From: a virus
Lineage: Duplodnaviria; Heunggongvirae; Uroviricota; Caudoviricetes
Virus record (IMG/VR): IMGVR_UViG_2534681835_000040
DNA: 6,677 bases
Direction: 5' to 3' (one strand)
Part shown: positions 1 to 6,677 of the stretch, in pieces
Layout: every line of letters starts with the position of its first letter
Position numbering within the stretch: the first letter of the stretch is position 1
Program-made: the position numbers and the translations under genes
Notes under the pieces: generated by a model
What the model was told of the DNA's origin: nothing
The model's database searches: none
Seen by the model: the letters and a program-made list of their open reading frames with translations, nothing else

Positions 1-300
1 TCTCAGTATGTGTCACTGGCCTATACGGAGCGACTAAAAGAAGCCGGATTACTGGCATCAACAGGGAGTACAGGCGACTCGTATGACAACGCGATGGCTG
101 AGAGCATCAATGGTCTTTACAAAGCGGAGGTAATACACCGTAAGAGCTGGAAAAACCGTGCAGAAGTGGAACTGGCCACACTAACGTGGGTGGACTGGTA
201 TAACAATCGACGATTGCTGGGAAGGCTGGGCCATACTCCTCCGGCAGAAGCAGAAAAAGCTTATTATGCTTCCATCGGAAACGATGATCTGGCAGCCTGA
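1..300 (+). CDS. IS3-family transposase (OrfB, DDE/integrase-core domain), C-terminal fragment; 5' end lies outside the window
   Basis: Frame 1 is open from base 1 (the track's start at 10 is an in-frame GTG, not a real start). Translation ...SQYVSLAYTERLKEAGLLASTGSTGDSYDNAMAESINGLYKAEVIHR... carries the SQY and DSYDNAxAES...K motifs of the C-terminal part of the IS3-family DDE catalytic core (conserved E and downstream K/R). Stop TGA at 298..300. Confidence 0.8.
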   Translation, partial: SQYVSLAYTERLKEAGLLASTGSTGDSYDNAMAESINGLYKAEVIHRKSWKNRAEVELATLTWVDWYNNRRLLGRLGHTPPAEAEKAYYASIGNDDLAA

Positions 301-1505: not shown

Positions 1506-1721
1506 ATGGCTCTCAACATTGATTGCGTACCTATAACGACATGGTGTCGAGATATGGGAGAAACGCTGGATGCCGTTAACAAACGGTTACAACGTGGAGT
1601 ATGGAAGGAAGGGGTTCAGGTTTTAAATGTGGAAGGCTCCAAAGAACGATGGATTGATTTAACTGAGGTTTCAAAATGGGCGAGAAAAAACAAATATCCT
1701 TATCACTCCCAAGAGGAATAA
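1506..1721 (+). CDS. xis: Excisionase-like / recombination directionality factor
   Basis: 71-aa protein immediately upstream of and overlapping the integrase gene by 46 nt in a different frame, the classic xis-int arrangement. GAGG sits 6 nt before the ATG. The call rests mainly on position and size; the sequence family is not verified. Confidence 0.6.
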   Translation: MALNIDCVPITTWCRDMGETLDAVNKRLQRGVWKEGVQVLNVEGSKERWIDLTEVSKWARKNKYPYHSQEE

Positions 1722-2848: not shown

Positions 2849-2982
2849 CCGCTTAAATATTTCAAAATATGTACTAAGGTAGGACAGAGAATAGACTCCA
2901 ACTTACACCTGAAATACATAAAAACATCTAGAAATAATATGAAATCTTTTGTTTTTCATATCGTTATGTAACTTGGGTGTTT

Positions 2983-3008
2983 GGGTTCAACTCCCGCCAG
3001 CTCCACCA
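2983..3008 (+). other. ssrA: 3'-terminal 26 nt of tmRNA (ssrA), i.e. T-loop, 3' acceptor strand and CCA, without the gene body: attachment-site core
   Basis: GGGTTCAACTCCCGCCAGCTCCACCA matches, from memory, the 3' end of E. coli ssrA (...GGACGCGGGTTCAACTCCCGCCAGCTCCACCA). The bases just upstream (..GGGTGTTT) do not match ssrA, so this is a partial copy, as expected at a prophage/island junction. It lies exactly between two integrase genes. Confidence 0.7.
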
Positions 3009-3044
3009 CTTTTTAGTTGTTTGAAGTTCAATGAAGTCTACTAA

Positions 3045-3076
3045 GCCCACACAGCACAAGCTCTGCGGGCTTTTTT
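3045..3076 (+). terminator. Rho-independent terminator-like hairpin plus T-tract downstream of the ssrA 3' fragment
   Basis: GCCCACACAGCACAAGCTCTGCGGGC forms an imperfect GC-rich stem (GCCC/GGGC outer pairs, AGC/GCT inner pairs) followed by TTTTTT at 3071..3076. Plausibly the native ssrA terminator retained at the junction. Confidence 0.45.
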
Positions 3077-3173
3077 ACGTCTATTGTCGTCCAGTGAGAA
3101 TTGCTGAGAACTACGAGTTATGGCACCCTGAATGGGACCCACTAAGAAGGGTCCAAAAACCGAGGGTCCCAAA

Positions 3174-4403
3174 ATGGCAAAAATCGCTAAGAAGCTCACT
3201 GACACTGAAATCAAAAGCACCAAGCCAGCCGATAAAGAAATCAACTTGTTTGACGGTGATGGTCTGATTCTACGAATCGCTCCTTTGGCGAAAGGAGGCA
3301 AGAAAAATTGGTATTTCAGGTATGCAGTACCAGTGAGCAAGAAAAGAACCAAAATGAGCCTTGGGACATATCCTCACCTTACCCTTGCAAGAGCCAGAGC
3401 CTTACGTGATGAATATCTCTCCTTTCTGGCAAATGGTGTTGATCCCCAAATCCATAACAACGATAAGGCGAAGGCATTAAAGAGTGCTACTGAGCACACT
3501 CTCCAAGCCGTAGCGCGGAAATGGTTAGATGAGAAGGTAAAGACATCAGGTATCTCACAAGACCATGCAGCAGACATCTGGCGCAGCTTAGAGAGAAATG
3601 TCTTTCCCGGTCTGGGTAATGTCCCTATCAATGAGATCCGACCTAAGCTCTTAAAACAACACCTTGATCCTATTGAGCAACGAGGCGTATTGGAAACTCT
3701 ACGCCGTATCATTTCACGTCTGAATGAAATCTTCCGGTGGGCAGCTACTGAAGAACTTATTGAGTTCAACCCGGCTGACAACCTTGGTCAAAGATTCAGT
3801 AAACCAAAAAAGCAAAATATGCCTGCCCTTCCCCCAAGCGAATTGCCAAGGTTTATGGAATCTTTGACGAATGCGTCAATCCGGTTGGAAACACGTATGC
3901 TAATTGAATGGCAATTGTTGACATGGGTTCGTCCGGGTGAAGCCGTTCGCGCAAGGTGGTCTGATATTGATACAACCAACAGCATTTGGAACATTCCTGC
4001 TGATTTCATGAAAATGAAAAAGCTTCACAAAGTTCCTTTGAGTAAAGAAGCTTTGCGCATCCTTGAATTAATGAAATCAATAAGTGGGCATAGAGAATGG
4101 GTTTTCCCCAGCATAAAAGCGCCTCTTAATCATATGCATGAACAAACAGCCAACGCAGCTATCATCCGAATGGGGTTCGGAGGCGAGCTTGTAGCTCACG
4201 GTATGCGTTCTATTGCACGAACAGCGGCAGAGGAGTCTGGTAAATTCAGAGCTGAAGTTCTTGAGGCAGCGCTTGCCCACTCGAAAAAAGATGAAATTAT
4301 CGCAGCATACAATCGTGCAGAATATCTGATAGAGCGACAGAGTTTGATGCAATGGTGGAGTGATTACGTTCAAGCTCAAAGATCAAATGCTCTGGTAGCC
4401 TAA
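3174..4403 (+). CDS. int: P4-type tyrosine integrase (CP4-57 IntA-like)
   Basis: From the ATG at 3174 (GAGGG 7 nt upstream) the protein begins MAKIAKKLTDTEIKSTKP...LFDGDGLILRI...WYFRY, matching the N-terminus of P4/CP4-57-type integrases; the ATG at 3132 is an alternative start. Catalytic signature: RPGEAVRARWSDID (Arg), KMKKLHKVPLS (Lys), AHGMRSIART (His..Arg), LAHSKKDEIIAAYNRAEY (His, Tyr). Sits directly downstream of the ssrA 3' fragment, as intA does at ssrA in E. coli K-12. Confidence 0.9.
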   Translation: MAKIAKKLTDTEIKSTKPADKEINLFDGDGLILRIAPLAKGGKKNWYFRYAVPVSKKRTKMSLGTYPHLTLARARALRDEYLSFLANGVDPQIHNNDKAKALKSATEHTLQAVARKWLDEKVKTSGISQDHAADIWRSLERNVFPGLGNVPINEIRPKLLKQHLDPIEQRGVLETLRRIISRLNEIFRWAATEELIEFNPADNLGQRFSKPKKQNMPALPPSELPRFMESLTNASIRLETRMLIEWQLLTWVRPGEAVRARWSDIDTTNSIWNIPADFMKMKKLHKVPLSKEALRILELMKSISGHREWVFPSIKAPLNHMHEQTANAAIIRMGFGGELVAHGMRSIARTAAEESGKFRAEVLEAALAHSKKDEIIAAYNRAEYLIERQSLMQWWSDYVQAQRSNALVA

Positions 4404-4441: not shown

Positions 4442-4630
4442 ATGGAAACCCTATTCAAAGTTTTTGAAAAATTTAGTTCCAGACCACTTTTTTTTATTTT
4501 TTTCGGACTCTCACTTTGTGAATTTTTTCAGAAACAATCTGTTCTGATGAATCCATCAGCAGATAACATCGCGAAATTATTCGCAGCCATGATATTAGTT
4601 GTTTTTTTACTTGGGGATTTGAATGGCTAA
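4442..4630 (+). CDS. Hypothetical small protein (62 aa) with two hydrophobic segments; doubtful
   Basis: ATG at 4442 with GAAGG about 8 nt upstream. Translation has PLFFIFFGLSLCEFF and AKLFAAMILVVFLLG hydrophobic stretches. It lies in a very AT-rich spacer where ORFs arise easily by chance. Confidence 0.25.
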   Translation: METLFKVFEKFSSRPLFFIFFGLSLCEFFQKQSVLMNPSADNIAKLFAAMILVVFLLGDLNG

Positions 4631-4873
4631 TCTTCAAGTTCAATGTAAACCTTGAACCTCATGATCAAGGCGATATTGGACCAACAATTGGAACGGCTAC
4701 TTTAGCTGTATACTTAGTTTATGCCTTTCACTTTCTCAGTGAAAATCCTGAAGCATTAAATTTAAAGTTATTAACTAACTCTGGCTTTATATACAGCACA
4801 ACTCTATTATTATTCTCATTAGAATGCATGAAGCTTAGAAGACTTAAACAAAAATAAACAACATCATTGTGAT

Positions 4874-4915
4874 GATAAATATAAAATAGGCATGGCGAAA
4901 AAAAATCACCACGCC
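4874..4915 (-). terminator. Putative rho-independent terminator for the large - strand ORF
   Basis: On the - strand, GGCGUGGUGA pairs with CGCCAUGCC (about 9 bp with two G-U wobbles, 4889..4915) around a U-rich loop, followed by the U-rich tract UAUUUUAUAUUUAUC (4874..4888). It lies 14 nt after the stop at 4929..4931. Confidence 0.4.
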
Positions 4916-4928
4916 TAAAATATAATAA

Positions 4929-6677
4929 TTATGGTAGCATCATTGATACATAATCCACACCAATCCTTGAGCTATACTGAGACGCTATAGCCTGATATCT
5001 TTCTGCATAACCAGTTCTCAGTTGAGATTTAAGTTTGAGTCGGACAGGAACATTTTGCACGTTGCCATCCATATTACTTAAAAACACGGCAGAAATAATA
5101 TTTTTTTCTTCGCCATCAACTGTTGTTCCATGATTCAACACCACCATATAATCAACAACAGGAAGCGTTTTATCCCCTTCGAAAATAGAGAGATATTTTC
5201 TTTGATTTTTATGCATTACATATATATATTTCGAATGTTCAGCAAATGGCAATGCTTTACTCTGACTGGCGTTAAAAAGCTCCAGAACTTTAATGAGCCT
5301 GTGCGGACTTAATCTTACATGGTGAGGGTCGTTACCCTGAGTAGGAACCAAATCACATGCCGCAGATACACATAAATACCATTTGTTCGACTCTGTATCA
5401 AAGAAAATAGTGCCAGTAGAAATATGACCATCTTCAAAATTCTTTGAAGACAAATTCATATTTAAAGCATGATACATTTCGTGATAAGTATCATTATTTG
5501 ATGGCAGATCCATTTTTGAAGAGCAATATTGGAGCAATGCAGCAACTCCGCTGTTAGCGTATTCATTTGAATAGCTATCAAAAACACTTTTGATAAATTC
5601 ATCCAGCGTATTATTATTTTTAAGTCTTTGATAAAGCTCTTCTGATAAATTACCAAATACAAAGTCAATATTTCTACATCTAATATCAGGCGAGTCTGAT
5701 TTTAATATCTCATTTAACCACGCAGCTTGACCGTAATGATCGTTAGCCAAATGATTTACAAAAGATAAAGCCTCAGCTTCGATTGCATTCTGAATTTCAG
5801 ATTTTATTAACTGATAATAAGATGGTTTCCATTCAATGAGAGAATCATTGAGAGTTTGCCAAATCCTATCTCCATCGTTTTCATGATCATCTTGAACCTT
5901 ATGAAATAGGGAGACAAAGATATTACCACATTGAATCCATTTTACTCCGCTTTCATCACCCCGAATGACATTGCCAGATGTGTTGCTAGAAATAATTGCA
6001 TTTCTAGACACAGCATATTCTGCAATCATTTTTGCAATGAAGTTTTTATCCTTTTGATCCTCCAACACAGCATCATCATGTATTAATCTTTTAATTCTTC
6101 TACAAGGCTTACTGTCTTTAATATAGGCTATTGTTTCATCTCTTGTGAGAGCTTTATTACCATTATCATTTAAGTTCGGTAATACAACGTCTTCCCAATA
6201 ACTTTGGACATCTTCATTATCGTAGTCAATGATCAAGCTGTTGATATCCAGAGCACCTTTGAGAGTCGATGATATCTGCATCCAAACCGTTTCTAAATTC
6301 TCTCTAGTATATATTACAATCATATTTAAATGATCGGAGTCTTTCAAATCTTGTAATAGTTTAAGTGTTTTATCAGGTGCATTATTATCAAGATGATAAT
6401 CTACAATAATAAGATCTGATTTTCTAATCCGATCCACATCGAAATTAACAGAACCATTGTCAACATCACAAATCATATTTTTAGATTGAAAAAAGCTCTC
6501 AAGAGTAGCGGCTCGTTTAGATGAGTCAATTTTGTTGTAGTCTAAATCAACTTCGTTATTCAACGCCCTGATTGATTCAGAATACGTCAGAAAATCGTCA
6601 TCAATCATGACAACGGAACGAATTGCATTTTCGCAGAAAGTTTTCTGGACAAGAGAATTATAATTTGCCACTGTCAT
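4929..6677 (-). CDS. Large hypothetical protein (582 aa in window; ATG is at the window edge) with an N-terminal CheY-like receiver-like region and an unassignable C-terminal region of about 440 aa; candidate cargo/defence gene
   Basis: Uninterrupted 1749-nt ORF, stop TAA (reverse complement of 4929..4931). Visibly AT-rich codon usage unlike the prophage genes. N-terminal motifs in receiver-like order: SVVMIDDDF (acidic pair), DLIIVDYHLDNNAPDKTLKLLQDLK (Asp at the end of a hydrophobic strand), NMIVIYTRE (Thr). No P-loop, GGDEF or other motifs I can recognise downstream. Confidence 0.85.
   Translation of the reverse strand: MTVANYNSLVQKTFCENAIRSVVMIDDDFLTYSESIRALNNEVDLDYNKIDSSKRAATLESFFQSKNMICDVDNGSVNFDVDRIRKSDLIIVDYHLDNNAPDKTLKLLQDLKDSDHLNMIVIYTRENLETVWMQISSTLKGALDINSLIIDYDNEDVQSYWEDVVLPNLNDNGNKALTRDETIAYIKDSKPCRRIKRLIHDDAVLEDQKDKNFIAKMIAEYAVSRNAIISSNTSGNVIRGDESGVKWIQCGNIFVSLFHKVQDDHENDGDRIWQTLNDSLIEWKPSYYQLIKSEIQNAIEAEALSFVNHLANDHYGQAAWLNEILKSDSPDIRCRNIDFVFGNLSEELYQRLKNNNTLDEFIKSVFDSYSNEYANSGVAALLQYCSSKMDLPSNNDTYHEMYHALNMNLSSKNFEDGHISTGTIFFDTESNKWYLCVSAACDLVPTQGNDPHHVRLSPHRLIKVLELFNASQSKALPFAEHSKYIYVMHKNQRKYLSIFEGDKTLPVVDYMVVLNHGTTVDGEEKNIISAVFLSNMDGNVQNVPVRLKLKSQLRTGYAERYQAIASQYSSRIGVDYVSMMLP

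Follow-up and report, generated by a model that had tools for sequence, protein, structure and literature searches.

Organization of the locus

The window, that is, the whole stretch of 6,677 nucleotides that was analyzed, contains parts of two elements on either side of a short segment of the tmRNA gene, ssrA: the integrase end of an Stx1a lambdoid prophage on the left and a small island with a CP4-57/P4-type integrase on the right (Table 1). It corresponds to Escherichia coli O111:H8 strain 8E (NZ_CP077465.1, 1245654-1252331, reverse strand), and the single difference between the window and that record is one T in a T-run at window position 4609. Both integrases of the window are tyrosine integrases. 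An earlier note on this DNA, made from the letters of the window, had placed the end of the left integrase 135 nt upstream of the ssrA segment and the start of the right integrase 166 nt downstream, both on the plus strand; the first distance follows from the end of the ORF (2983-2848 = 135), and the second, counted from 3008, holds with the RefSeq start.

In strain 8E, a complete ssrA is found at record positions 1285062-1285424, beside smpB. It lies 35,738 bp upstream of the core in the window and in the same orientation, which is where the earlier note had expected it, beyond the far end of the left prophage. That end of the prophage, with tail fibre genes and dinI, abuts the complete gene, and the 8E locus has no further core copies between or around the intact ssrA and the window core. 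According to the RefSeq annotation, the DNA between the two cores includes Q, stxA1a/stxB1a, holin/lysozyme, terminase, portal, capsid, and tail genes; with Q, stx, lysis, and morphogenesis genes annotated there, the left element has the gene content of an Stx-converting lambdoid prophage.

Table 1. Features of the window and of the adjoining 8E locus, with the sequences of the two core junctions.
Feature	Position	Strand	Basis or remarks
IS1203 (IS3-family) copy, 3' end, inside prophage	1..300	+	rve_3 integrase-core domain in ORF 10-300
xis, Stx1a prophage excisionase	1506..1721	+	RefSeq excisionase WP_071827872.1; overlaps int start, as in lambdoid phages
Stx1a prophage integrase, 390 aa	1676..2848	+	Pfam Arm-DNA-bind_2, SAM-like, Phage_integrase
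Int-proximal att arm, phage DNA to putative crossover region	2849..2982	+	Collinear with LMessi int-to-core spacer
Displaced att core: last 26 nt of ssrA (2983-3008) plus CTTT	2983..3012	+	Direct repeat of intact-ssrA junction
Putative ssrA trailer and intrinsic terminator, island-borne	3009..3076	+	Hairpin 3043-3072 plus U6; terminator scan
CP4-57 IntA-type (P4-family) integrase	3174..4403	+	Pfam Arm-DNA-bind_3, Phage_int_M, Phage_integrase
Island cargo	4442..6677		Small hypothetical gene (frameshifted) and Response_reg_2 protein; kinase gene just past window
Response_reg_2 (PF19192) protein	4929-6677	-	Island cargo
HEF_HK and HATPase_c kinase	8E locus extract 26680-28398	-	Adjoins Response_reg_2 gene, beyond window
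Intact ssrA / phage junction			...GGACGC GGGTTC...CCACCA CTTT AAGAAGG...
Window junction, phage / island			...GTGTTT GGGTTC...CCACCA CTTT TTAGTTG...

The ssrA fragment and the direct repeat

Window positions 2983-3008 (GGGTTCAACTCCCGCCAGCTCCACCA) are identical at 26 of 26 positions to the 3' end of the 363-nt ssrA, in the source genome as well as in K-12. When the whole of ssrA was used as a blastn query, this was the sole ssrA-derived segment of the window (ssrA 338-363, E 4e-9), the remaining matches being noise of 10-11 nt. ARAGORN found no tmRNA or tRNA genes in the window, and the Rfam tmRNA model (RF00023) covered 13 nt with 10.2 bits against a threshold of 47. The claim that only the last 26 nt of ssrA are present, with no gene body, is borne out by these searches; the segment is a fragment of ssrA and not a gene, and it does not have the full tRNA-like domain, tag frame, and pseudoknot. 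The 26-mer has a single occurrence in the 46.7-kb locus, even when three mismatches are allowed.

The match to the junction at the intact gene continues for four nucleotides beyond the end of ssrA (CTTT), so the repeat is 30 nt rather than 26. This direct repeat is perfect, with its second copy at the junction beside the intact ssrA, and the copy in the window serves both elements, as the ssrA-distal junction for the prophage and as the ssrA-proximal one for the island. When the window was compared with all complete E. coli genomes, ssrA loci without the tandem arrangement aligned from position 2983, the first base of the core. The alignments of some island-bearing genomes begin one base earlier, at 2982.

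A segment this short might also be a chance match, or the stump of an ssrA destroyed by deletion. Nothing more than its length speaks for either, and the probability that one of them applies is practically negligible. The 26-mer did not occur in 100 shuffles, the same genome has an intact ssrA, and the DNA upstream of the segment belongs to a phage att arm, collinear with the attP of phage LMessi, and not to chromosome brought there by a deletion; on these three grounds, both were rejected.

The Stx1a prophage and its attachment site

The left integrase is taken to be an ssrA-specific tyrosine recombinase. Its identity is 77% to the integrase of LMessi, a free phage, as well as to that of the prophage occupying this site in O26:H11, and protein identities of 75-78% were found with the integrases of the LMessi group as a whole (LMessi, the PhiR12 phages [PhiR12_x], phi467, and Cronobacter phiES15). 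The group differs from the 8E prophage in having no stx annotated in the regions examined and in its diverged att arms, and no DNA nearly identical to the left integrase gene and att was found in the phage collection. For this reason, the attP of the prophage is inferred from the 77%-identical relative. The excisionase gene that precedes int has no Pfam or NCBIfam match.

In LMessi, int is followed by approximately 134 nt, the exact 26-mer with CTTT, and then an arm that resembles the DNA abutting the intact ssrA in 8E; the spacing from int and the 30 nucleotides are the same as in the window. Among the related phage records, this arm has 81.9-84.7% identity to the DNA after the intact 8E ssrA. 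The contiguous arrangement in LMessi was observed directly, and it is an attP of the type predicted by joining both ends of the prophage. No record in the phage collection covers at least 80% of the full reconstructed attP. In phi467, whose integrase is 76% identical, the stretch searched lacks a core up to 1.2 kb from int. The arm between int and the core in the window is not ssrA-derived according to blastn, and other ssrA loci match the window only from 2983.

In phages of this kind int reads toward the core, so that after integration int comes to lie at the ssrA-distal end; this accounts for a single core flanked by two integrase genes in the same orientation. The left half of the earlier proposal, a shared att core, agrees with these data, as the Int and Xis genes of the prophage abut the core and a related free phage has the corresponding attP intact. 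The label attR that was given to this junction is suitable only in the sense of ssrA-distal; in the lambda convention, the int-proximal junction is attL. The left prophage also has the Islander signature: the intact ssrA and the same-strand 3' fragment share the perfect repeat across their 35,738 bp, and an integrase is accompanied by a fragment-bearing attP, seen in the relative and reconstructed for the prophage itself.

The Stx1a prophage looks defective, since no repressor, N, or O/P genes are annotated for it in RefSeq. The IS1203 copy that enters the window at its left end spans 18970-20300 of the 8E locus extract, between a ninE annotated as truncated and the block of DUF551, DUF4222, xis, and int, and it occupies the place of the early, immunity, and replication region. 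Despite this IS-mediated decay, 8E retains both perfect 30-nt repeats as well as int and xis, and the prophage may therefore still be able to excise, which would be relevant to stx loss and mobilisation.

The island on the right

The right element was described in the earlier note as a P4-like island, and its integrase agrees with this: it has the domain architecture of the CP4-57/P4 type, shares 48% of its residues with K-12 IntA in a full-length alignment, and passes the NCBIfam model NF007246 with 440.6 bits (cutoff 434). The same protein, WP_001341819.1, is present in O26:H11 strain 11368. Its gene is directly 3' of the ssrA end, in the same orientation and behind a homologous trailer and terminator, exactly as intA is placed behind ssrA in K-12. 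Of the P4-like accessory genes, neither an alpA-type regulator or excisionase nor a primase-like gene was found on the island.

The segment from 3009 to 3076 is homologous to the left end of K-12 CP4-57 and to the 3' end of the Rfam IsrM model, and its hairpin has a predicted energy of -15 kcal/mol (z -4.2). In phage-free strains this segment follows the intact ssrA directly, with 100% identity, and presumably acts there as the trailer and terminator of ssrA; in 8E it is orphaned. The intact ssrA of 8E now precedes phage DNA, in which a hairpin with a U-run (-16 kcal/mol) is found approximately 150 nt downstream (12905-13062 of a second 8E locus extract, minus strand). The region of this hairpin is largely conserved in LMessi, and it seems that the tmRNA gene receives a substitute terminator from the phage.

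The island is approximately 5.5 kb in length and has four genes, encoding the integrase, a hypothetical protein of 138 amino acids, the Response_reg_2 protein, and the kinase. The hypothetical gene has its full length in RefSeq 8E (locus extract 24442-24858) and is shortened to 62 amino acids in the window (4442-4630) because the window is without one T at 4609, which is probably a homopolymer sequencing or assembly difference. The kinase gene has an internal stop in 8E, where it is a pseudogene, and is intact in CP-1639, O26, and O43. PADLOC did not convincingly place the island cargo in any defence system.

In 8E, the island runs into a truncated ygaQ, followed by glaH-gabDTP, and among the genomes compared it ends at either the truncated ygaQ or IS3. 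A further copy of the 26-mer had been expected beyond the island, and on this point the earlier note was not supported: in 8E, O43 RM10042, and O26 11368, no distal core was found with up to 3 mismatches to the 26-mer or up to 4 edits to a 19-mer, so that even a degenerate copy is absent. The island is therefore without the distal tDNA fragment of its own that belongs to the Islander signature, and it is best read from these three genomes as a fixed remnant that would be unable to excise. The tandem model is not refuted by the absence of a third core, since none of the genomes examined, the phage-free one included, has more than a truncated remnant of the island.

Order of arrival

Integration into either copy of the core yields the same map, so the order in which the two elements arrived cannot be deduced from the layout. 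The earlier note proposed that the prophage came after the island, and population data support this. The ssrA/island junction, rebuilt without the phage, was found with 100% identity over 763 nt in many diverse phage-free E. coli, with at least 80% of its length covered in 959 genomes. The phage-free state was seen directly in O43 RM10042, which has the same four-gene island and no prophage. The junction of phage, core, and island as in the window was found at 98% identity or more in only four genomes, with diverged versions in five more. In O26:H11 11368, a different phage, which belongs to the same integrase group, precedes the same island; its Int is 77% identical, and a DUF4760 gene is present between int and core. 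The displaced core of this strain (locus extract 6038-6063) is shorter by 3 nt, with CCACCAC reduced to CCAC. In a sizeable minority of island-bearing genomes, the core adjacent to the island is not annotated as ssrA, and the island is probably separated from ssrA by other elements there.

Because phage-free genomes join the island to the intact ssrA, and because O26:H11 has another phage before it, the island is taken to have been there first. Parsimony across genomes makes it far more likely that the Stx1a prophage arrived at a site already holding the immobile remnant. The reverse order, in which the Stx1a phage entered an island-free ssrA and a P4-type island later entered the displaced 26-nt fragment, would by the logic of att recombination lead to an identical final layout, and a tandem array can be extended at either core. 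It is nevertheless improbable: the island is immobile and without a distal repeat in all three genomes checked, one of them phage-free, and stands behind a different phage with the same Int accession in O26:H11, while the many diverse phage-free genomes with the ssrA/island junction at 100% contrast with the four that have the phage/island junction. The reverse order would require the repeated insertion of an element that was already truncated.

The proposed history therefore has the island first. In the ancestor, ssrA would have been joined directly to a small CP4-57/P4-type island remnant, which supplied its trailer and terminator. A lambdoid Stx1a phage would then have arrived with the same 26-30 nt in its attP, just downstream of int, and we infer that its own tyrosine integrase catalyzed recombination between attP and the 3' end of ssrA. 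With the crossover placed inside the shared core, ssrA would have remained intact, now with a trailer and terminator supplied by the phage, and the second copy of the core would have been displaced by 35.7 kb to its position between the phage int and the island int. The prophage would later have lost its early region through an IS1203-associated deletion, with int, xis, and both repeats kept. The identities and the layout are observed directly, as are the contiguous attP in a relative and the phage-free state of other strains. The history as a whole is very probable, with the 26-mer as the displaced 3' end of the tmRNA gene, marking the boundary between the prophage and an older island remnant.

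The IsrM-like match

Window positions 2943-3076 (mainly 3000-3076) match the Rfam family IsrM (RF02763) with 53.1 bits and an E value of 9.5e-13; the gathering threshold is 376. Only the 3' portion of approximately 95 nt of the 329-nt model aligns, 208 model positions being replaced by 25 nt, and the aligned part consists of a degenerate stretch resembling the ssrA end followed by the trailer and terminator of the island. Membership in the IsrM family of small RNAs was rejected on the score and because only this trailer and terminator part aligns, and the match itself is explained by the island-borne ssrA trailer. In Salmonella LT2, isrM is just upstream of the integrase gene STM2763 and in the same orientation, so the 3' end of IsrM looks like the att and trailer region of a homologous P4-type island.

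That 2943-3076 encodes a small RNA akin to Salmonella IsrM that is expressed, and is more than the scar of recombination, could be argued from the E value, from the good terminator at 3043-3076, and from a weak promoter-like site at 2909-2938. This is very improbable, considering that the score is far under the gathering threshold with a partial alignment, that what aligns is the island trailer, which ordinary strains have behind ssrA, that the number of promoters is inside the range of the shuffles, and that the upstream arm is not conserved among 8E, O26, and LMessi. The fold of 2940-3080 is no better than that of shuffled sequences (z -0.15), and a structured RNA over this region was rejected. 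There is likewise only a slight chance that transcription from the phage arm through the core, trailer, and terminator (approximately 2945-3076) yields a short RNA ending in the acceptor and T-arm half of tmRNA, which would correspond in E. coli to the 3' part of IsrM, a virulence small RNA of Salmonella; in that case, new small RNAs would arise repeatedly from att scars at ssrA.

Comparison with known systems

It has long been known that several elements share the 3' end of the tmRNA gene as the place where they attach. Williams (2003) reportedly described tandem occupation of this gene, as "traffic at the tmRNA gene." Tandem prophages are also known in STEC, and in the Islander collection an intact tDNA with displaced fragments, including tandem arrays, is standard, the tmRNA gene being the most enriched target (PMC4383910). 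The locus in 8E resembles such an array in its intact target gene, its displaced 3' fragment in the same orientation, and its one tyrosine integrase per element. The strict definition of Islander has a fragment for each member of the array, and the 8E locus departs from it because the island, having lost its fragment, is without a third copy of the core.

Like the island, CP4-57 of K-12 has an IntA-type integrase gene that lies approximately 170-200 nt past the 3' end of ssrA and reads in the same direction, and the left ends of the two elements are homologous, the trailer and intrinsic terminator included. CP4-57 is a larger element of 22 kb, with alpA, many cargo genes, and a degenerate distal repeat, psaA (attR pseudo-ssrA); the island in the window, at approximately 5.5 kb, has an integrase only 48% identical, other cargo, and no distal repeat.

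The arrangement of the locus is ordinary and of a kind already published. What is new here is in the details: the repeat of 30 nt, the intact junction in 8E, the lack of a third copy at the island, and the explanation of the IsrM match. In O111:H8, the fragment shows exactly where the Stx1a prophage ends on its right side and where the island remnant begins on its left, and the significance beyond correct annotation is slight.

The closest known system is from the same serogroup. The ssrA gene is a listed integration site of Stx phages, first described for CP-1639, a cryptic Stx1 prophage of E. coli O111:H- strain 1639/77 (GenBank AJ304858; Creuzburg et al. 2005, Microbiology 151:941); Ogura (2007) also reported ssrA-integrated Stx1 phages from O111 strains, with the right junction "not identified." CP-1639 is an Stx1 lambdoid prophage between ssrA/smpB and a "remnant integrative element," after which come b2657-b2659. 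In the annotation of AJ304858, this remnant consists of intA, a hypothetical gene, a receiver protein, and a histidine-kinase-like protein. The dinI-ssrA junction of CP-1639 has 99.8% identity to that of 8E, and both prophages are riddled with IS629/IS1203. They differ in what was lost: in CP-1639, an IS629-associated deletion took int and xis of the phage together with the displaced core and the 5' portion of intA on the island, and the junction seen in the window is missing there because of this deletion, whereas 8E has kept the junction and lost the early region of the phage instead.
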